Assembly: GCA_964231325.1 (NCBI GenBank)
Contig: CAXRIF010000002.1
Coordinates: 287,138 to 351,137, forward strand
Reading direction: 5' to 3'
DNA from: Rickettsiales bacterium
GTDB taxonomy: Bacteria > Pseudomonadota > Alphaproteobacteria > Rickettsiales > SXRF01
Length of the DNA stretch: 64,000 nt
Position 1 is the first letter of the stretch, and each line of letters opens with the position of its first letter. Below, one piece after another: positions 3,512 to 38,561 of the stretch. A program made the position numbers and the translations under genes. A model generated the notes under the pieces. The model was not told the DNA's origin, did no database searches, and worked only from the letters and a program-made list of their open reading frames with translations.

Positions 3512-4612
3512 TCATCCGTCTTCCAAATGTAAGAGCAATGCCCCACCAACCATGCTCATCACTACGGCAGGCGCCCAGGCGGCCAGCCAAATGGGTAACG
3601 TGCCTGCTGAGCCTAATGCAAAAATCAGATCGGTAAAGAAATGCATCAAAAACCCGGTCAAGATACCGGCCACCACCAATATGCCGACCTTACCACGGCG
3701 CGGTAAACGTAGCGAGAATACAGCAGCTACCAACACAGTTCCTGCGAGTAAGAACGGACTAGCAAGCATACTTTGCCAGTAAAGCCGGTGTTTAAGTGCA
3801 GAAAACCCTGCATCCTCCAACATAGTGGTAAAGGATGGCAACGCCCAAAATGACATGGTTTCTGGCGAGGCAAAACTATCCTGAATATAGCCAAGCGTGA
3901 GGTTGGTTGGCAGCACCTCTTCAGAAGTTTCCACCGGAGGTTGGCCTGGCACCGAACGGATCACCTTAGAAAGCACCAACTCACCGGGATTAAGTATGGC
4001 ACGTTTTGCATCAAGCCGCTCGGAAAATTTCTTTTCCTTATCGAAGGTATAGATATTCACATTATCAAACGACATATCGTTTTGCGAAATGCGCATGGCG
4101 TGAATAATATGTTCATTACCAGTTTCTTCAATCTGGCGAAGCCACAAACCAGACGACGAGACCGCAAGCAAGCTCGGCCTACCGGTTAAATATTTCCCTT
4201 CAATATGCTCGTAACGCAGTAACAAGGCAGAAGCCAGCGGGTTAAACACGGTGGTCATCAACATACCAATGCCAAGCACCACCATCACTGCCGGATATAA
4301 AAATTGCCACACAGACACCCCGGCCGAACGTGTCACCACCAGTTCGTGTGTACGCGTAAGTTTGGTCAGCGCCAACATGCTACCGATCAACACTGCGTAA
4401 GGCATAAGTCGTTCAGCCATACTGGGAAGTTTAAGCAGTACCATTTGCAAAATGACCCCAATGGTCACTCCATCTTTGCCCGAAGCACGACGCAACAATT
4501 CAATCAAATCCACTAACATGCTAATGGCAAGCAAACCAAACAGCGCCAGCATAATGGACTGCAGAAAATGTTTTCCTATATAGGAAGAAAGTGTCCAGGG
4601 AAGTCTCATCAT
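3512..4612 (-). CDS. lptG: LPS export ABC transporter permease LptG
   Basis: It belongs to the YjgP/YjgQ permease family and lies directly downstream of lptF. The start ATG at 4612 overlaps the lptF stop (ATGATGA). The longer 429-aa ORF extension overlaps lptF and is rejected. Confidence 0.9.
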   Translation of the reverse strand: MMRLPWTLSSYIGKHFLQSIMLALFGLLAISMLVDLIELLRRASGKDGVTIGVILQMVLLKLPSMAERLMPYAVLIGSMLALTKLTRTHELVVTRSAGVSVWQFLYPAVMVVLGIGMLMTTVFNPLASALLLRYEHIEGKYLTGRPSLLAVSSSGLWLRQIEETGNEHIIHAMRISQNDMSFDNVNIYTFDKEKKFSERLDAKRAILNPGELVLSKVIRSVPGQPPVETSEEVLPTNLTLGYIQDSFASPETMSFWALPSFTTMLEDAGFSALKHRLYWQSMLASPFLLAGTVLVAAVFSLRLPRRGKVGILVVAGILTGFLMHFFTDLIFALGSAGTLPIWLAAWAPAVVMSMVGGALLLHLEDG

Positions 4613-30846: not shown

Positions 30847-31040
30847 GCACGGGCGACAGAAGAGAGGGTTACATTGTGGAATATGTCGTGGTAGGTAAGT
30901 CCGTTAAAGTCACTGCATTTGATCCTTTGACGCTTAGGGAAGTGAGTATCGTTGGTGATACTAAGGTCCCTAAACATCAACTGGCCGAACTGGCGATACG
31001 AAAATTGAACTATGTACTGGGCAAAGAGAAAGACGAGTAA
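30843..31040 (+). CDS. Small conserved hypothetical protein (65 aa)
   Basis: The GTG start overlaps the upstream stop (GTGA) and the stop overlaps the PBP start (TAATG). The block YIVEYVVVGKSVKVTAFDPLTLREVSIVGD resembles a small alphaproteobacterial family whose name I am not sure of. Confidence 0.55.
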   Translation: MSTGDRREGYIVEYVVVGKSVKVTAFDPLTLREVSIVGDTKVPKHQLAELAIRKLNYVLGKEKDE

Positions 31041-33157
31041 TGGCGCTGTTTAAGAAACTTAAAAAAAGGCTCCGCCCGAAGCGCCGGAAATATCCCAAAT
31101 ATGGCTCGCGCAATATACCTAAGCTCGAATCGTCTAAAGTGCGTAAGGGTGCATCATCTTATAACCCTGCCGGTAAGAAGAAAAAAAAGAAGCGCAAAGG
31201 CAAAAAGAACAAACTAAGCGGATTTAAGCTCTTTCTCGTCCGTGTCATATTTCTTGGAGGCGTGGTCACTTTTGGTATCGTAAGCTGGTTCTGGTTATCA
31301 CTTCCAAACATCAATGAGCTGAACCGATTTACCAAAGCACCCAGCATTCTGATTAAAGCAGAAAATGGAAAAATCATTGGCAGCTTTGGTGATATTTACG
31401 GCGATTATGTAACGTTTGATCAGATGCCACAATCACTGGTGGACGCGGTGATGGCCACAGAAGATCGTAACTTCTACTATCACTTTGGAATTGACCCTTT
31501 GGGTCTGGCACGCGCAATGGTCGCCAATATTCGAGCTGGAAGAGTGGTGCAAGGTGGTAGCACCATCACCCAGCAGGTTGCTAAGAACGTATTTCTCACG
31601 CCAGAACGTTCTTTCACACGTAAATTCCGTGAAATGTTGCTCGCCTTCAAACTGGAATATCGTTTTACCAAAGAAGACATTATGAGCATTTACCTAAACC
31701 GCGTATATCTCGGTGCAGGTAACTATGGGGTGGATGCGGCATCACGCCGTTACTTTGGCAAATCCTCGCGTGATATTGGCCTTTCTGAAGCCGCCATTCT
31801 CGCTGGCCTGCTTAAAGCGCCATCGCGTTTCGCACCAACCAGCAACCCGAAGCTTTCGAAAAAGCGTGCTGAACAAGTGCTGCTTAACATGGAGGATGCG
31901 GGCTATTTGAATGATGAGCAAACCAAAAAAGCCATCGCAGACTTGACCCAGGCAATGAGCGAACGAAAACGCGATTCACAAAGCACCATGTATTTCGCTG
32001 ACTGGGTTGCCGATCAGGTGCCTGATTTTATTGGCAATGTAGAAGAAGATCTTGTCGTTACCACCACACTGGATTCCAATATGCAAGCCATGGGGGATAA
32101 AGCCATTGCAACCATTATGGATGCCAAGGAAACTGAAGAAAAGAATGCTTCGCAAGCAGCCCTGATTTCCATGGCGCGTGATGGTGCGGTGCGCGTAATG
32201 ATAGGTGGACGCAGTTATGGCAAAAGTCAGTATAACCGAGTCACACAAGCCAAACGTCAGCCTGGCTCTTCATTCAAACTGTTTGTCTATCTTGCGGGGC
32301 TGGAAGCGGGCATGACCCCGATGACCATTATCGAAGATGAACCGATTACTATTCAGCTACATCGTGGCAGCTGGACACCACGTAATTACACCGGAAGATA
32401 TGAAGGGCCTATTACTGCGAAAGAAGCCCTCACCCATTCGATCAACACCGTAGCGGTACGTATTGCGCAGGCCGTTGGGGTGGATAAAGTCCTTCACGTG
32501 GCACGACGCCTCGGTATTGAATCTGATCTGGATGCAGTACCCAGTATTGCACTTGGTTCGACTGAAACCACCTTGCTCGAGATGACTACCGCCTATGCAC
32601 ATCTGGCGGCTGGTGGTGCCATTGTAAAACCGTACGGTATTTTAAAAATTGATACGACCAGTGGCAAAACTATCTATGAGCGCAAGCCACCAAGAGGTGG
32701 TCGCGTGCTTAGCGCTAGCGTGGTGAGTATGATGAACGAAATGCTGATCAATGTGGTGACCAGCGGTACCGGTAGGCGTGCACGCATTGGCCGCACTGTC
32801 GCGGGCAAAACCGGCACCACTTCAGATTATAAAGACGCCCTGTTTATTGGTTATACGGGTAATCTTGCCACTGGCGTGTGGGTAGGCAATGACGATAACA
32901 AAAAAATGAAAAAAGTTTCTGGTGGCAATCTCCCTGCCAGCATTTGGCATGACTTTATGGCTGAGGCGACAGCCGGAATGGCCGCACGTGGTCTACCGAC
33001 AGAGTCTTACGATGATGCGCCCCTGCCTTGGCAGACACGTTCTGATTTCCCTACCGGTTCCGGCAATATTGTTGGCCAGCGTGATCCAGGTCGTGATTCA
33101 GATGAGCGTGACGTGGAGCTGGGCCCCTCCTTCTGGGATAAGCTATTCGGCAATTAG
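31040..33157 (+). CDS. mrcA: Penicillin-binding protein 1A family (bifunctional transglycosylase/transpeptidase)
   Basis: The GT51 motifs are EDRNFYYHFGID and GGSTITQQVAKN. The transpeptidase motifs are SSFK, SIN and KTGTT. The cytoplasmic tail is polybasic (GKKKKKKRKGKKNK). Confidence 0.9.
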   Translation: MALFKKLKKRLRPKRRKYPKYGSRNIPKLESSKVRKGASSYNPAGKKKKKKRKGKKNKLSGFKLFLVRVIFLGGVVTFGIVSWFWLSLPNINELNRFTKAPSILIKAENGKIIGSFGDIYGDYVTFDQMPQSLVDAVMATEDRNFYYHFGIDPLGLARAMVANIRAGRVVQGGSTITQQVAKNVFLTPERSFTRKFREMLLAFKLEYRFTKEDIMSIYLNRVYLGAGNYGVDAASRRYFGKSSRDIGLSEAAILAGLLKAPSRFAPTSNPKLSKKRAEQVLLNMEDAGYLNDEQTKKAIADLTQAMSERKRDSQSTMYFADWVADQVPDFIGNVEEDLVVTTTLDSNMQAMGDKAIATIMDAKETEEKNASQAALISMARDGAVRVMIGGRSYGKSQYNRVTQAKRQPGSSFKLFVYLAGLEAGMTPMTIIEDEPITIQLHRGSWTPRNYTGRYEGPITAKEALTHSINTVAVRIAQAVGVDKVLHVARRLGIESDLDAVPSIALGSTETTLLEMTTAYAHLAAGGAIVKPYGILKIDTTSGKTIYERKPPRGGRVLSASVVSMMNEMLINVVTSGTGRRARIGRTVAGKTGTTSDYKDALFIGYTGNLATGVWVGNDDNKKMKKVSGGNLPASIWHDFMAEATAGMAARGLPTESYDDAPLPWQTRSDFPTGSGNIVGQRDPGRDSDERDVELGPSFWDKLFGN

Positions 33158-33871: not shown

Positions 33872-35692
33872 ATGCGATTTCCGCCGTCTTTCATAGAGCG
33901 TATACGCACCCACTCCCTGCTATCGGAAGTGATTGGCAAACGTATTACGCTTAAGAAGCATGGGCGCGAATATCAGGCGTGCTGTCCATTTCATAATGAA
34001 AAGACACCGTCGTTTACCGTAAATGACGAAAAAAACTTCTATCATTGCTTTGGTTGTGGTGCACATGGAGATGCGATTGGATTCCTGATGCAGCATCAAC
34101 GTATGTCATACCCAGAGGCAATTGAAACATTGGCTCGCGACGCAGGTATCGCCCTGCCCGTGCAAAGTCCTGAAGAACGACACAGAGCACAAGCAGAAAA
34201 AACACTTTACGATGTGTTGGAAGCGGCGTGTGCATGGTTTGAAAAACAATTGCGCGCTCCTGCCTATTTCACTGCACGTGATTACGCAGAAAAACGTGGC
34301 CTGTCGGATGAAACATTACGCAAATTCCGCATTGGTTATGCTCCGCCTGACAAAACGGCGCTGCATAAACACCTATTGGAGCTTGGTTTCTCGCAAAAAC
34401 TGCAGATAGAGGCCGGGCTTATCATCGCGCCGGATAATGGTAATGTATATGATCGTTTTCGTAGCCGCCTGATCTTTCCTATTCGCAATGCCTCGGGCAA
34501 AGTGGTCGCGTTTGGTGGCCGTTTACTCGATAGTGATAATAAAAAACTGGCCAAATATTTAAACTCTCCAGAAACCCCTGTGTTCAAGAAAGGGGAGCTG
34601 CTGTTTAACCTTGATCTGGCCAAACGCCCAGCGCGCGAAAACAACATCGCCGTGGTAATGGAAGGCTATATGGATGTAGTCGCCACTACACAATCCGGCA
34701 TTGACTATGCGCTGGCCACACTCGGCACCGCGGTTACACCAGAACATTTACGTTTGCTGTGGCAACTGGCGAAAGAACCAGTCATCTGTCTCGATGGCGA
34801 CGCGGCAGGTAAACGTGCCATGCTACGCGGTATTGAAATCGCCCTTCCACTACTCAAACCCGGTTGCAGTTTGCGCTTTGCCATATTGCCCAAAGGCGAA
34901 GACCCGGATTCCTATATACAAAAACACGGGAAAGCGAGCTTTGAGAAAGTTCTTGTCTCCTCCAAACGACTTTCGCAGGTGATATGGGAGACGCTTTTAC
35001 CGCAATTCAAAATTGATCTGCCAGAAGGCAAAGCCGCACTTGAAAACACACTCAATCAACTGGCAGGCAAAATCACCGATGCTACGGTGCGCCAGCACTA
35101 TCAATCCTATTTCAGGAAAATGCTCTGGGAGAAAAAGCCCACTACACAGAAACACGCAGCGACAAAACAGCGCTCGGCCCATGTAGAACGCATGGCCGTG
35201 CAACATTATTCAGCAGCGCTTGAAACCCTTACACGTCGTATGCTTAAAACGCTCATTCAGTTTCCTTCCCTTCTGCACAAAAGTAGTGTGGAAGAAACCT
35301 TATCGCGGCTTGATATACGCAGTTCGCACATGGACGCACTGCGCAATGCCTTGCTTTCTGCCGCCGGGGATACCAACATTGATGATCAAGCCAAATTCAT
35401 GGACTATATACGCTCACAACTCCCTGTTGAGTTGCTGGATGGGCTGCTAAATGACAACCTGAAACTCCCCTATGCCAATACGCTGACTATTGATGACGCG
35501 CTGATGTTATGGAACGAAACGGCAGACGCCTATCAAATCAGTCATTTAGAGTTTGAACTCAAAGAATTACAAGAAAACCTGGGCAATAATATGGATGAAG
35601 CTGCGTATCAACGATTAGTTGAGCTAAAACAGGCGCTTGACAATGCCCAACGCGGTCGCACTTTCAGCTCTGAAGCCTCAGACGTAGCCTAA
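33872..35692 (+). CDS. dnaG: DNA primase
   Basis: It has a zinc ribbon (CCPFHNEKTPSFTVNDEKNFYHCFGCGAHGD) and a TOPRIM region (VVMEGYMDV, LDGDAAG). It lies upstream of rpoD. Confidence 0.95.
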   Translation: MRFPPSFIERIRTHSLLSEVIGKRITLKKHGREYQACCPFHNEKTPSFTVNDEKNFYHCFGCGAHGDAIGFLMQHQRMSYPEAIETLARDAGIALPVQSPEERHRAQAEKTLYDVLEAACAWFEKQLRAPAYFTARDYAEKRGLSDETLRKFRIGYAPPDKTALHKHLLELGFSQKLQIEAGLIIAPDNGNVYDRFRSRLIFPIRNASGKVVAFGGRLLDSDNKKLAKYLNSPETPVFKKGELLFNLDLAKRPARENNIAVVMEGYMDVVATTQSGIDYALATLGTAVTPEHLRLLWQLAKEPVICLDGDAAGKRAMLRGIEIALPLLKPGCSLRFAILPKGEDPDSYIQKHGKASFEKVLVSSKRLSQVIWETLLPQFKIDLPEGKAALENTLNQLAGKITDATVRQHYQSYFRKMLWEKKPTTQKHAATKQRSAHVERMAVQHYSAALETLTRRMLKTLIQFPSLLHKSSVEETLSRLDIRSSHMDALRNALLSAAGDTNIDDQAKFMDYIRSQLPVELLDGLLNDNLKLPYANTLTIDDALMLWNETADAYQISHLEFELKELQENLGNNMDEAAYQRLVELKQALDNAQRGRTFSSEASDVA

Positions 35693-35811
35693 TTTCGTAA
35701 AATTAGATAAATACCCATTGAAAAAAATTAAAAATACCTTATTTCTAGCGTGTTTAACTGCGTCCATCCGGACGCATAGGGTGCAAATTATCTCGTAAGA
35801 AGGGATGAGGA

Positions 35812-38205
35812 ATGGTGAAAAGACGCACGGTAGCCAAAAAATCAACTGCAAAAAAAACGACTAAGGCTAAGGCGAAGCCTAAGAAGCCGGTCAAAAAGAC
35901 GGCTGCAAAAAAGGTAGCAAAGAAACCTGCTGCCAAGAAAAAAGTCGTAGCGAAGAAAAAGCCTGCAAAAAAAGTGGCTAAGAAGCCGGTTAAAAAGACG
36001 GTAGCAAAGAAGAAGCCTGCCGCCAAGAAACCAGCCAAAAAATCCGTAGCGAAGAAAAAGCCTGTGAAGAAGGTAGCCAAAAAACCGGTTAAGAAAGTAG
36101 CAAAGAAAACCACTTCCAAAACCGCGAAAAAAGTCGTAGCGAAGAAATCACCCGTTAAAAAAACAAAGCCTAGCAAAGCTTCTGTCAAAAAAGTTCAACC
36201 TAAAACCAAGAAGAAAACGCAAGTAGTGAGCAAGAAACCCGTAAAAAAAGCTGAAAAAATCAGCAAAACAAAAACACAAAATACCAAGAAAAAAACACCT
36301 GCCGCAAAGGAAACGGCGGCGAAGAAAGACACCGCAACGAAGGAACTTAAAGTTACCTTGGTGCGTAAGCTTCTGGCCATGGGTAAGGATAATGGCTACA
36401 TCACCTATGATGATCTGAATGGTGTATTGCCTCCTAAGGAATTTTCACCAGAAGTGATCGATGCAGCCATTGCGGCACTCGCACAATCGGACATTCAAGT
36501 AGTAGAAGAAGCGCCTGAAGCAGAAGAGAAAGAAGAGAAAGAAGAAGTTGAAAACACTGGCCGTTCGGATGATCCGGTGCGCATGTATTTGCGCGAGATG
36601 GGCAATGTAGAACTGCTTTCACGCGAAGGTGAGATTGAAATTGCGAAACGCATTGAAGCAGGCCGCGAAACCGTAATCAGCGCATTATGCGAATGCCCAC
36701 TGGTGATGAAGGAAATTCTTTCATGGCGCGATGAGCTTGATGCGGGCACCATGTTACTGCGTGACATTATCGACCTTGATGCCACCTATGGCGCGGGTAA
36801 TGATTCCAATGATTTTTCCGAAGAGATGGAAGAGGAAGAATTGGATGATGAGGACGTTGATGACGAAGATTCTGATGATGATGAGGATGAAGACGGCGAA
36901 GACGAAGATGAAACAGAAGAGGAAGAAGATGATACTACCGTCTCGCTTCTGGCTATGGAAACCGCCCTTAAACCTCAAATCCTAGAAACGCTCGATCAGT
37001 TTGCCAAGATCAGTAAGAAAATGCGCAATCTGCAAGAGAAGCGCCTGTCTAAGTCAATTGGTGAAGGCAAATACAGCAAGGATGATGAAAAGCTGTATCA
37101 AAAGCACCATCGCGACCTGGTGGAGCTGATGATGGGTGTACGTTTTACCATATATCGTGTGGAAAGCCTGATCTTAAAACTATACGTCATTCACCGTGAG
37201 TTAACCTCGCTGGAAACACGCTTGTTGAAACTGGCAGAAGCTCGCAAGGTGCCACGCAAAGCCTTTGTAGACGCTTATATGGGGCATGAGCTAGATCCGC
37301 ATTGGTTCAGAAAGCTAGGCCAGCGCAAGGAAAAAGGCTGGAAAGAATTTATAGCCAAAGACCGTAAAGAAATTGATGGTATCCGCGATGAAATGGGTAA
37401 GATCGCAGAAGCCGCTGGCTTGGAACTGGCTGAATTTAAGCGTATGATCCTTGCCGTACAAAAAGGTGAGCGTGACACGAATCGCGCGAAAAAGGAAATG
37501 ATCGAAGCGAACTTACGTTTGGTTATTTCTATTGCCAAGAAATATACTAACCGTGGCCTACAGTTCCTTGACCTTATTCAGGAGGGTAACATCGGCCTGA
37601 TGAAAGCGGTGGATAAGTTTGAATATCGCCGTGGCTATAAATTCTCGACCTATGCTACCTGGTGGATTCGTCAGGCCATTACGCGCTCTATTGCCGATCA
37701 GGCACGTACCATCCGTATTCCTGTGCACATGATCGAAACCATCAATAAAATCGTCCGCACCTCGCGTCAGATGCTGCATGAAATTGGCCGTGAACCAACG
37801 CCGGAAGAGCTAGCTGAGCGTCTGGTGATGCCACTGGATAAGGTGCGCAAGGTGATGAAAATTGCCAAGGAGCCCGTATCGCTGGAAACCCCGATTGGTG
37901 ATGAAGAGGATTCGCATCTGGGTGACTTCATTGAAGATAAAAATGCAGTGTTACCACTCGATGCAGCCATTCACAGCAACCTGCGCGAAACCACCACTCG
38001 AATTCTCGCCTCACTTACCCCGCGTGAAGAGCGTGTGCTGCGTATGCGTTTTGGTATCGGCATGAACACCGATCACACATTGGAAGAAGTGGGCCAGCAA
38101 TTCTCAGTAACGCGTGAGCGTATCCGTCAGATTGAGGCCAAAGCGCTGCGTAAATTGAAACACCCTAGCCGCTCTCGTAAACTTCGTAGTTTCCTGGATT
38201 ATTAA
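35812..38205 (+). CDS. rpoD: RNA polymerase sigma-70 factor RpoD with a roughly 175-aa Lys/Ala/Pro-rich N-terminal extension
   Basis: Regions 2-4 are canonical ([75 protein letters not shown]). No stop and no internal Met occurs between the ATG at 35812 and the region-1.1-like block [20 protein letters not shown]. Confidence 0.9.
35818..36340 (+). repeat. Coding low-complexity tandem repeats (AKKPAKK / VAKKPVKK type) inside rpoD
   Basis: GTAGCGAAGAAAAAGCCTG recurs at 35947 and 36046, 99 bp (33 codons) apart. A related GTAGCGAAGAAA lies at 36136. Translation gives ...[22 protein letters not shown]... and ...[21 protein letters not shown].... Confidence 0.85.
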
Positions 38206-38207
38206 TC

Positions 38208-38561
38208 ATGACCATCACCACCAAGCTCTACACATTGTTTAATGGCCACTTGGTCGGCACGGATCAGTTTGGTAATCGCTATTTTACGGAGAAAAAGGCA
38301 CCTAAGACACGTAAGGCAAAACGCTGGGTGATGTATAATGGAATGGCTGAACCGAGCAAGGTACCACCAGAATGGCATGGCTGGTTACATTATACACATG
38401 ATGTACCGCCATCAAAACGTACCGTATCGCACCATGGGTGGGAAAAACAGCACAAACCTAATTTAACGGGCACTCCCGGGGCTTATGTACCCCCCGGACA
38501 TACATTACGCGGCGAAGAGCGCGCAGCTTCCAGCGCAGATTACGAAGCTTGGAAACCCTAA
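38208..38561 (+). CDS. NADH:ubiquinone oxidoreductase subunit NDUFA12 (B17.2-like)
   Basis: The blocks GHLVGTDQFGNRYFTEKK...RWVMYNG...PPEWHGWLHYT match the NDUFA12 family. Confidence 0.9.
   Translation: MTITTKLYTLFNGHLVGTDQFGNRYFTEKKAPKTRKAKRWVMYNGMAEPSKVPPEWHGWLHYTHDVPPSKRTVSHHGWEKQHKPNLTGTPGAYVPPGHTLRGEERAASSADYEAWKP

Follow-up and report, generated by a model that had tools for sequence, protein, structure and literature searches.

A polycationic, predicted disordered N-terminal tail on the primary sigma factor RpoD of a Rickettsiales bacterium and its relatives

The rpoD locus and its coding frame

The window, by which we mean the whole 64-kb stretch of DNA analysed from this uncultured alphaproteobacterium (host GC content, 47%), contains an open reading frame on the forward strand (35812..38205) that starts with ATG and encodes a complete RpoD, the primary sigma factor, of 797 amino acids (aa). 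Its upstream neighbour is dnaG, the usual partner of rpoD, which ends 119 nt before it. The features of the locus are as follows.

33872..35692, forward strand: dnaG, DNA primase (Pfam Zn_ribbon_DnaG, DNAG_N, Toprim)
35715..35745, forward strand: promoter-like block, with -35 TTGAAA at 35718-35723, a 16-nt spacer and -10 TATTTC at 35740-35745 (genome comparison)
35759..35776, forward strand: 7-bp perfect hairpin UGCGUCC-AUCC-GGACGCA in the presumed 5' leader (read from the sequence)
35800..35811, forward strand: Shine-Dalgarno-like AAGGGA (6 nt 5' of the ATG) and GAGGA (sequence)
35812..36333, forward strand: polycationic N-terminal tail, aa 1-174 (composition, AlphaFold, Pfam)
35833..36186, forward strand: repeat core of the tail, aa 8-125, with KK doublets or triplets and 2-3 neutral residues between them (VAKK, KKPV, KKPA)
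35938..36147, forward strand: imperfect 99-bp tandem duplication in the tail, 2.2 copies, 78% matches (TRF)
36187..36333, forward strand: transition zone of the tail, aa 126-174, a K/T/Q/S/E mix of net charge +16 that ends with a clade-conserved K-E-(E)-L
36334..36567, forward strand: region 1.1 and acidic linker (aa 232-252) (Pfam Sigma70_r1_1, aa 182-252)
36571..36669, forward strand: region 1.2 (Pfam Sigma70_r1_2, aa 254-286)
36694..37404, forward strand: sigma non-conserved (non-essential) region (Pfam Sigma70_ner, aa 295-531)
36844..36933, forward strand: acidic tract within the non-conserved region, aa 345-374 (sequence composition)
37498..38163, forward strand: regions 2, 3 and 4, for core binding and -10/-35 recognition (Pfam r2 aa 563-633, r3 aa 642-717, r4 aa 732-784)
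38208..38561, forward strand: NDUFA12-family gene, beginning 3 nt past the rpoD stop (Pfam)

The order dnaG-rpoD is also found in relatives L001, L003 and L081-L084, and the NDUFA12-family neighbour is kept in L081-L085. Aligning the window with L001, L002 and L003, we found that the promoter-like block is the sole conserved part of the dnaG-rpoD spacer; it is present in L083 and L085 too, and its motif occurs once in the window. The C at position -7 of this candidate promoter agrees with alphaproteobacterial promoters (PMC8407463), and a strict scan for E. coli-type sigma-70 promoters over 35500-36500, including the tail, made no call. With z = -1.6, the predicted fold of the hairpin in the leader falls short of significance, and L001 and L003 do not conserve the hairpin. 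An Rfam scan of the window returned no match, indicating that the rpoD leader holds no known RNA element.

An in-frame TGA stands two codons 5' of ATG 35812, and from the 5' end of rpoD frame 0 is uninterrupted over 540 nt, with 11-13 stops in each of the other two forward frames. The first in-frame ATG after the start is M190, in agreement with the sequence-only reading of this DNA, which had counted about 175 codons (aa 1-174 here) free of stops and internal ATGs. The other in-frame alternative starts are limited to GTG codons 2, 55, 85, 139 and 184 and TTG codon 183, and no well-spaced Shine-Dalgarno sequence was found before the internal GTG, TTG or ATG codons of rpoD. The protein begins with M-A/V-x-K-R, a motif homologous to the MATK/MAAK with which ordinary alphaproteobacterial RpoDs open, and L083 has an equivalent AAGG-type motif ahead of its homologous M-A-x-K start. 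Judged from these comparisons, ATG 35812 is very probably the true start of rpoD, since a Shine-Dalgarno sequence, a homologous N-terminus and a conserved upstream promoter-like block all accompany it.

If the Lys-rich stretch were instead an untranslated 5' leader, translation would begin at GTG 36361 or ATG 36379, and in-frame TTG 183, GTG 184 and ATG 190 do exist. However, an open frame of this length is highly improbable by chance (1/5000 shuffles), and it stays open despite frequent indels across our homologue set, which consists of 119 usable and divergent RpoD clusters that together make up one clade and of which none (0/119) starts at region 1.1. Moreover, the conserved N-terminal motif and the Shine-Dalgarno sequence belong to the upstream ATG, none of the internal candidates is preceded by such a sequence at suitable spacing, and M190 lacks conservation, with Leu as the consensus residue of the clade there. 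We regard an untranslated leader as very improbable. A test for avoidance of long poly(A) runs through Lys-codon choice, which would point to translation, gave P of about 0.2 and no significant signal; the longest A run in the tail DNA is 8. Two antisense ORFs rich in Phe and Leu (35754-36188 and 36195-36380) were rejected as genes, being mirror images of the Lys codons.

Composition of the tail and architecture of the sigma core

The tail consists of 43% K, 16% A, 13% V, 10% T and 8% P, which gives aa 1-174 a net charge of +73 and a pI of 11.5. AlphaFold renders these residues as coil with pLDDT 42-56, so that the tail is predicted to be intrinsically disordered; no Pfam family scores above threshold over aa 1-174, and a search of solved structures yielded no counterpart of the tail. 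Lysine autocorrelation peaks at lags 4-5. At the DNA level, GTAGCGAAGAAA occurs as exact copies at 35947, 36046 and 36136, just where the sequence-only reading had placed its repeats, and nowhere else in the window (0 expected); all three copies fall inside the 99-bp duplication at 35938..36147. TRF reports a second repeat in the tail, with a 24-bp period, at 36055-36111. No other Lys-rich tract of this kind was found in the ORFs of the window. A PBP1A homologue in the window has a short basic N-terminus.

The protein that follows is a canonical Group 1 sigma-70, with regions 1.1, 1.2, the non-conserved region and regions 2, 3 and 4 in order, all six Pfam families of a primary sigma factor above their cut-offs, and a housekeeping locus downstream of dnaG. 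These features bear out the description of the gene as a housekeeping sigma factor with a large in-frame extension, rich in Lys, Ala, Pro and also Val, before region 1.1. By the AlphaFold helices (H175-194, H199-205 and H213-225; pLDDT 81-89), region 1.1 begins at residue 175, and the 20-residue string that had been quoted as its start begins at aa 184. Among solved structures, Caulobacter sigma-73 (7YE1_F; E = 1e-226) is the best relative, and the core aligns to it from residue 172 to the end (query 172-796, chain 17-651), with regions 2-4 nearly identical; these regions are almost invariant within the clade as well. PDB alignments of RpoD to HrdB span regions 2-4 only.

Charge is distributed along the chain in blocks of +73, then -2 and -7, then -28. 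The whole protein has a net charge of +41/+42 and a pI of 9.6, and the core alone has a pI of 5.0. The sequence-only reading had also pointed to the acidic tract, which is indeed present at aa 345-374; a special link between this tract and the tail did not hold up. The median charge of the non-conserved region is -22 in tailed versus -24 in tail-less RpoDs, that of region 1.1 is -12 versus -14, and within the clade tail charge correlates with neither region 1.1 charge (rho 0.05) nor non-conserved region charge (rho -0.07). Because the acidic tract does not covary with the tail and is no larger than in tail-less RpoDs, we consider it an ordinary feature of the protein and not part of the novelty.

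Distribution and turnover of the tail among relatives

All 119 clade clusters carry a basic N-terminal extension, 36-255 residues long and net-positive in every case (119/119). In contrast, ordinary alphaproteobacterial RpoDs, which agree with ours in dnaG-rpoD synteny and in beginning with M-A-x-K, carry a short acidic leader ahead of region 1.1 (about 16-30 residues, ~25; net -5), frequently with PLLDLxDA at its end, where our RpoD has a 174-residue polycation. The sequence-only reading was thus correct that model alphaproteobacteria lack the tail. The median net charge of alphaproteobacterial RpoDs is -36 for tail-less and +9 for tailed proteins. Basic RpoD tails have also arisen in several alphaproteobacterial lineages outside the clade, and about 20/90 distant RpoD cluster representatives carry them, so that similar tails recur independently in other lineages. 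Since it is present in all 119 clusters and in other lineages, the tail is common and no peculiarity of this gene. An extension both common and already characterised in the clade had been named as what would count against the earlier interpretation; common it has proved to be, characterised it has not.

The sequence of the tail turns over almost completely. Its identity to that of the nearest relatives is 0.37-0.42, compared with 0.33 for shuffled tails and with a core identity of 83-87%, and in this stretch M1 and K176 alone are conserved across the clade, the latter nearly invariant. Length also changes quickly between species: tails whose cores diverge by <3% differ by a median of 6 aa, the difference reaches about 200 aa clade-wide, and some clade members have tails of only 30-50 aa with charges of +4/+5. 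These patterns suggest that selection holds the bulk composition and charge of the tail and not its sequence. In sister lineages, a short, predicted Trp/Phe-rich cap (MWWLWLD...) precedes the tail; under the histone-like reading considered below, such a cap could add a second, non-electrostatic contact.

Within the species, three contigs encode an identical protein, with identical DNA in independent assemblies, and a fourth, a metagenome-assembled genome, shows 53 SNPs along 5.4 kb, 0 indels and a single tail substitution. Repeat-number variation was not found in these four assemblies, which are a small sample. The tail DNA has neither the near-perfect short tandem repeats nor, in the four assemblies, the copy-number polymorphism of slippage-prone contingency repeats. 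The expectation that tail length is changeable is borne out between species, but present-day variation by repeat slippage is not, the repeats being 78% alike and the assemblies free of indels.

Used alone as a query against a collection of 5.8 billion proteins, the tail gave a single borderline match (E = 9e-4), to a eukaryote-type UAF30-like protein. Composition correction removes all other tail-only matches, and the tail thus has no homology-based family. As the tail by itself has no detectable homologue, any functional argument is one of composition.

Known counterparts and possible roles of the tail

The C-terminal domain of eukaryotic linker histone H1 contains about 40% Lys plus Ala and Pro. 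The tail resembles this domain, as well as chlamydial Hc1/Hc2, in amino-acid composition and disorder, to which charge-driven DNA condensation is added on their side. The label histone-H1-like that had been given to the tail stands as far as composition goes, by which alone the tail matches the Lys/Ala/Pro-rich disordered tail of linker histones. It fails for the globular H1 domain and for tail homologues: RpoD has no Linker_histone Pfam match (E <= 0.01), AlphaFold places no folded element in residues 1-174, the Hc2 profile PF07382 scores 19.6 bits on the tail against a gathering cut-off of 40 (E = 0.001), and no S/TPKK motifs are present in the tail. We conclude that the H1 resemblance is one of composition, with no sign of homology in these profile and motif searches.

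The lysine repeats of HrdB are located after region 1.1 and are much shorter than the tail. Such repeats have been noted both in Streptomyces HrdB and in Bordetella pertussis RpoD (PMC5714199, PMC7398561), and Strzalka et al. 2017 suggest that in sigma factors they add DNA affinity (PMC5714199). Like these two proteins, the RpoD described here is a housekeeping sigma factor with Lys clusters spaced by a few neutral residues; unlike their hosts, high-GC actinobacteria and a betaproteobacterium, the present one is a 47%-GC alphaproteobacterium. The tail fits the general lysine-repeat pattern of Strzalka et al. 2017 (five or more repeats of 1-3 Lys/Arg spaced by 2-9 neutral residues) with 20 consecutive units at aa 24-115. 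It falls outside their strict actinobacterial filter, which requires Lys of 10% or more, Ala of 27% or more and the unit K1-2(A/T/N)3-5: it has 16% Ala and one strict unit (KKTAA), and its spacers are mostly 2-3 residues long and include Val and Pro. The tail is an example of a kind already noted in other bacteria.

Other DNA-transaction proteins bear disordered Lys/Ala-rich tails, including actinobacterial TopA, HupB/MDP1 and HupS, although these tails are C-terminal, are attached to a topoisomerase or to HU-type proteins and have no homology to the one described here. In Streptomyces TopA, the lysine repeats bind DNA, making the complex of enzyme and DNA more stable and the enzyme more processive (PMC5714199), and the disordered region of MDP1 is reported to organise the genome (PMC5974015). 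AlgP and PhaF of Pseudomonas share with the tail about 150-190 disordered Lys/Ala/Pro-rich residues and a 4-residue rhythm. The KPAA tail of AlgP, termed histone H1-like and with a net charge of about +55, binds DNA in vitro, while AlgP itself sits on polyphosphate granules and sets their spacing (PMC9239181). However, AlgP has near-perfect KPAA tandem repeats, compared with 2 KPAA and 0 KPVA in the RpoD tail, which is no KPAA array, and it tethers polyphosphate or PHA granules outside RNA polymerase, whereas the tail here sits on sigma. In CarD of Anaeromyxobacter dehalogenans, a Lys/Ala/Pro-rich H1-like domain is fused to a transcription factor of the CarD family and can replace the AT-hook/HMGA DNA-binding domain of M. 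xanthus CarD (PMC2919716, citing Garcia-Heras et al. 2009); CarD is an accessory regulator and no sigma factor, and its basic domain is C-terminal. Finally, Mycobacterium tuberculosis SigA has, like our RpoD, a long disordered lineage-specific N-terminal extension that is missing from solved structures (PMC10011835). This extension of 225 aa is no Lys-repeat polycation, its first 132 residues can be deleted without loss of function, and its functionally critical part is formed by acidic residues 132-179 (PMC10011835).

We infer that the tail binds DNA and that this has consequences for transcription. Region 1.1 of E. coli sigma-70 is an acidic DNA mimic and an autoinhibitory element that keeps free sigma off DNA, and it must leave the polymerase channel. 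The reading we prefer, to which we give an even chance, is that the tail is a non-specific DNA/polyanion-affinity module on sigma; the nucleoid-tethering or DNA-affinity role proposed in the sequence-only reading is plausible by analogy with the systems above. In this model, RpoD would be the single housekeeping sigma factor of the organism, carrying, in place of the short acidic leader, a translated disordered polycation with KK/KKK clusters every 4-5 residues that would act as an electrostatic, sequence-non-specific affinity module for nucleic acid, mainly DNA. As deduced from E. coli structures, region 1.1 would lie within the downstream-DNA channel of the holoenzyme, and the tail, being attached to its N-terminus, would come out on the downstream side of RNA polymerase. 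In that position it could keep free sigma or the holoenzyme attached to the nucleoid, promote one-dimensional promoter search, and make early promoter complexes more resistant to salt. What counts against this reading is that a long tail would not be indispensable, since some clade members manage with the 30-50-aa versions, and that Mtb SigA tolerates loss of the first 132 residues of its extension (PMC10011835). We consider it quite unlikely, though conceivable, that the housekeeping sigma factor doubles as a nucleoid-associated histone-like protein, its tail overcoming region 1.1 autoinhibition so that free sigma coats or scans DNA without core or nucleates transcription condensates with DNA, RNA or polyphosphate.

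Rapid turnover also fits a tolerated low-complexity expansion at a permissive N-terminus, in which A-rich Lys-codon repeats grow and shrink through replication errors, with a product that lacks any specific function or serves a general one, for instance in solubility or as an entropic bristle. Near-complete replacement of sequence, quick changes in length, imperfect internal DNA duplications and very short tails in some clade members would all be expected from such a process, as would a dispensable segment like the first 132 aa of Mtb SigA (PMC10011835). Yet drift does not readily account for a Lys-rich, net-positive composition kept in 119/119 clusters at core distances to about 0.3 or for the independent recurrence of similar tails in other lineages; the other proteins in the window show no like drift, and neutrality is improbable for a charge shift of +70 in a DNA-transaction protein that is abundant and essential. 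Passive expansion is unlikely in our judgement.

Charge could also be put to use on a different partner. Polycations bind polyphosphate and RNA as well as DNA. That AlgP, with its comparable Lys/Ala/Pro tail, sits on polyphosphate granules (PMC9239181), and that binding by a disordered polycation is chemically non-specific, would be in line with a tail that binds another polyanion (polyphosphate granules, RNA, whether nascent or ribosomal, or acidic membrane lipids) and thereby localises or sequesters sigma, for example in starvation; the locus, however, offers no polyphosphate or RNA context and the domain fused to the tail acts on DNA, which leaves this unlikely. The partner could even be sigma itself: with oppositely charged blocks in one chain, and with region 1.1 known as a DNA mimic and autoinhibitory element, the tail might pair with the acidic parts of sigma, namely region 1.1, its acidic linker and the acidic tract of the non-conserved region, to tune autoinhibition of free sigma or the ejection of region 1.1 at open-complex formation. 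We find this improbable, given that charge does not covary within the clade, that tail-less RpoDs have acidic regions at least as large and that +73 is far above what their neutralisation would need.

A polycation of +73 directly ahead of acidic region 1.1 flips the charge of the whole protein (from pI 5.0 for the core to 9.6). Since the core-binding regions are nearly identical to those of Caulobacter, the DNA-affinity idea is easy to test. Annotators and structural biologists should expect basic tails on RpoD and avoid trimming them as mis-called starts. Retention of the tail throughout the clade, together with similar tails in unrelated lineages, suggests a general, unstudied tuning of promoter search or sigma localisation, comparable to the way lysine tails render topoisomerase I of actinobacteria processive, and if the histone-like reading is true, promoter finding would be altered in these bacteria, as possibly would chromosome compaction.

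The RpoD protein and its lysine-rich N-terminus

We found that rpoD lies in a normal housekeeping locus, 119 nt after the end of dnaG and 3 nt before the start of an NDUFA12-family gene; an identical protein, from an uncultured "Rickettsiales bacterium" MAG, is annotated RpoD in NCBI. By membership test and Pfam it is a group 1 sigma factor with the full set of primary-sigma modules, preceded by a tail of 174 residues:

35812-38205 (+): rpoD ORF, 797 residues
Tail part 1: conserved start
Tail part 2, residues 8-125: repeat core of KK/KKK clusters, with spacers of mostly 2-3 neutral residues
Tail part 3: transition zone of mixed K/T/Q/S/E, ending in K-E-E-L-Q-x-A
Residues 182-252: region 1.1 (Pfam)
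Residues 254-286: region 1.2 (Pfam)
Residues 295-531: non-essential region (Pfam)
Residues 345-374: acidic tract, in the non-conserved region
Residues 563-633: region 2 (Pfam)
Residues 642-717: region 3 (Pfam)
Residues 732-784: region 4 (Pfam)

The tail consists of 43% Lys, 16% Ala, 13% Val, 10% Thr and 8% Pro (net charge +73, pI 11.5), with Lys autocorrelation highest at lags 4-5. Three copies of GTAGCGAAGAAA, reported by the sequence-only reading, are found at exactly 35947, 36046 and 36136 (expected 0), and the tail DNA contains an imperfect 99-bp tandem duplication (2.2 copies, 78% matches). AlphaFold, given an 82-sequence alignment, predicted no secondary structure in residues 1-174 (pLDDT 42-56) and began region 1.1 helix 1 at residue 175 (pLDDT 81-89); the K-E-E-L-Q-x-A motif leading into region 1.1 is conserved among the related RpoDs. 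The alignment to the best solved relative, Caulobacter sigma-73 (7YE1_F), starts with query residue 172 at chain residue 17, and no counterpart of the tail was found among solved sigma factors.

Two Phe/Leu-rich antisense ORFs across the tail (35754-36188 (-), 144 aa; 36195-36380 (-), 61 aa) are not credible genes, being the reverse-complement shadow of AAA/AAG Lys codons. The sole other basic tract among the window ORFs is the strongly basic N-terminus (..KKLKKRLRPKRRKYPKY..GKKKKKKRKG) of a class A penicillin-binding protein with transglycosylase and transpeptidase domains (31040-33157 (+)), which is Arg/Lys-rich, whereas the RpoD tail is Lys/Ala/Pro/Val-rich. The window also codes for sulfate assimilation, class II ribonucleotide reductase, shikimate and pyrimidine synthesis and a type IV pilus/T2SS-type ATPase, a set that does not suggest an obligate intracellular parasite. 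The rpoD-NDUFA12 spacing is 2-14 nt in most relatives (window 38205-38208; related loci L081-L085), with an additional 74-aa ORF between the two genes in L083; the arrangement suggests a conserved transcription unit in the clade.

Translation of the tail and the upstream region

The tail is almost certainly part of the RpoD protein, judging from its open frame, Shine-Dalgarno sequence, homologous start and the open extensions of its relatives. As first read from the sequence, the extension is in frame and contains no in-frame stop; the next in-frame ATG is codon 190. When the same bases were shuffled 5000 times, this 540-nt frame stayed open only once, and the remaining two forward frames contain 11-13 stops. 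AAGGGA lies 6 nt 5' of the ATG at 35812, and no Shine-Dalgarno sequence stands at a workable distance from the GTG/TTG/ATG codons 183, 184 and 190. Ordinary alphaproteobacterial RpoDs start with MATK or MAAKD and continue with ~25 residues of acidic leader. Since these starts correspond to MA(S/Q/K)K(R) in relatives of the window RpoD and to MVKRR in the window RpoD itself, its start is homologous to the ordinary one, and the Lys-rich stretch replaces the short acidic leader between this start and region 1.1. Comparison with homologues provides the strongest argument for translation: not one of the 119 usable homologue clusters has its start at region 1.1, and all 119 keep the frame open through the extension although many indels separate the extensions. 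That the tail is an untranslated leader is thus scarcely credible.

Features upstream of the tail, in the window and in related loci, are:

35715-35745: promoter-like block directly 3' of the dnaG stop, found by sequence conservation
35759-35776: perfect 7-bp hairpin (UGCGUCC AUCC GGACGCA) in the presumed rpoD 5' leader
L001:3800-3850, L085:1201-1254, L084:1201-1248 and L002 ~3965-4060: Trp/Phe/Leu-rich cap

The block, CCATTGAAAAAAAT.AAAAA..CTTAT(T/A)TCT, reads TTGAAA-N16-TAT(T/A)TC, then GTTTAA; it is the sole conserved part of the dnaG-rpoD spacer in the window and loci L001, L002 and L003, and is present also in L083 and L085. A missing T at -7 is typical of alphaproteobacterial core-gene promoters. 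The block has C at this position, matching the alphaproteobacterial promoter type of Myers et al. (PMC8407463), and we call it promoter-like only. The hairpin fold is not significant (z = -1.6) and is not conserved in relatives.

In 43-50 of the 119 related clusters, the gene call begins 15-30 codons further upstream, in frame. These starts encode a short Trp/Phe/Leu-rich peptide (MWWLWLD, MWWWWQQ, MVFPFLF, MLFINWL, MFPFYF), followed by a K/G-rich linker and the usual M-A/S-x-K start; P0178, a deeper 50%-identity cluster, is also capped (MFFNLFYNPQLLSFLGNTM...). The cap may be translated in L001 and L085, because their strongest Shine-Dalgarno sequences (AAGGAGG, AGGAG; 4-5 nt spacing) precede the upstream ATG. 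It is absent from the window, where a TGA occupies 35806-35808.

Distribution and evolution of basic tails

In a neighbour-joining tree of the core, the 119 usable clusters (from 120 best homologues) form one clade, 62-78% identical overall to the window RpoD (own cluster of the query excepted). The 71 ordinary alphaproteobacterial RpoDs stand apart at core distances of at least 0.34 from the window RpoD; model alphaproteobacterial RpoDs lack the extension. Basic extensions, 36-255 residues long and with +4 to +74 net charge, are present in all 119 clade clusters; that of the window RpoD has the highest Lys density, and within the clade only cluster P0114 exceeds its charge. Outside the clade, basic tails are sporadic: the loci L004 and L006; L005, L010 and L025 (among them two Rhizomicrobium MAGs, one of which apparently uses a GTG start); and L053. 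L004 and L006 lie on contigs labelled Marinimicrobia/Neomarinimicrobiota (PASS01000052.1, CANJBL010000013.1), yet their RpoDs are alphaproteobacterial-type, with L027 and L009 (Caenispirillum) as nearest neighbours and Lys-rich tails of 225 aa (+77) and 146 aa (+20); this points to either mis-binning or mis-labelling, or a tail of independent origin. Of the 150 best hits from an exhaustive search of 1.84 billion cluster representatives, 90 allowed region 1.1 to be placed, and ~20 of these 90, all metagenomic sequences, have N-terminal extensions of 66-382 residues (net +12 to +99). From the clade, sporadic and distant occurrences, basic RpoD tails are therefore missing from model organisms yet recurrent in nature, and the window RpoD heads a large uncultured clade that carries them. 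The extension is common among related RpoDs, and uncharacterised in the literature we found.

Among the closest relatives, cores are 83-87% identical and tails 37-42%, against 33 ± 2% for shuffled tails. The median tail length difference is 6 residues at <3% core divergence and at least 40 at higher divergence, and only M1 and K176 are conserved columns. Composition and charge sign are thus conserved and tail sequence is not, as is usual for functional disordered regions whose property is bulk charge. Within the species, three contigs encode an identical RpoD, and a fourth MAG shows 53 substitutions across 5.4 kb, with 0 indels and one tail substitution (K33I). Ongoing repeat slippage, proposed from the sequence alone, is not borne out by these four assemblies, a small sample with 0 indels in the tail; indels clearly build up over longer times. 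In the comparison with locus L082, the 3' 920 bp of rpoD (window 37251-38172) hold 40 of the 53 substitutions, all synonymous since the proteins of the two MAGs differ only by K33I, and 35910-37250 holds none; this pattern suggests a recombination tract inside rpoD between two MAGs of the species.

Kinship and possible role of the tail

The sequence-only reading called the extension histone-H1-like. Its composition fits, but it differs from linker histones, which are ruled out by the missing globular domain, and from chlamydial Hc2 (19.6 bits against a cut-off of 40). An AlgP-type KPAA array was also ruled out by membership test, the isolated tail found no homologues, and the tail contains 20 units of the general lysine-repeat pattern and falls outside the actinobacterial Ala-rich definition. 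Because of these outcomes, we would file it as a lysine-repeat disordered tail on a DNA-transaction protein, a kind that includes primary sigma factors. Strzalka et al. noted lysine repeats in Streptomyces HrdB and B. pertussis RpoD and only suggested a role in DNA interaction (PMC5714199, PMC7398561); our literature searches turned up neither a description of such a tail on an alphaproteobacterial RpoD nor functional work on one in any sigma factor.

The tail alters the charge of the whole protein: median net charge is -36 in tail-less alphaproteobacterial RpoDs and +9 in tailed ones, and the window RpoD reaches about +41 (pI 9.6 vs 5.0 for its core). In E. coli, region 1.1 is an acidic DNA mimic that occupies the channel for downstream DNA in the holoenzyme until promoter DNA displaces it. 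Since region 1.1 sits in that channel, a polycation of 174 residues attached to its N-terminal end would stick out on the downstream side of the enzyme. Non-specific electrostatic DNA binding is the most likely role, a judgement we hold at even confidence, because analogous lysine-rich tails act on DNA: the Streptomyces TopA tail stabilises the DNA complex and raises processivity (PMC5714199), the AlgP KPAA tail binds DNA (PMC9239181), and in the transcription factor CarD an H1-like domain can stand in for the AT-hook DNA-binding domain (PMC2919716). Such binding would retain sigma or holoenzyme on the nucleoid, promote sliding or hopping in the search for promoters and stabilise early complexes.

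A tolerated low-complexity expansion is unlikely, though tail turnover is fast, clade members with tails of about 30-50 residues exist, and Mtb SigA can do without the first 132 residues of its extension (PMC10011835). Binding of polyphosphate, RNA or membranes, in favour of which AlgP sits on polyphosphate granules (PMC9239181), is quite unlikely here. That the tail pairs with acidic regions of its own sigma factor is very unlikely: these regions are no larger in tailed than in tail-less RpoDs (median net charge of the non-conserved region -22 tailed, -24 tail-less; region 1.1, -12 and -14), and within the clade tail charge is uncorrelated with either (rho -0.07 and 0.05, respectively). The acidic tract, correctly spotted from the sequence, is the ordinary acidic patch of proteobacterial sigma-70, present in E. 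coli too, and not a co-evolved partner.

The original observation is thus correct and well above chance, and its interpretation partly right. This type of RpoD tail has already been noted in the literature and the evidence so far points to no new mechanism; what stands out is that an essential and much-studied protein has its charge strikingly reversed, a change that recurs in evolution and is easy to test.
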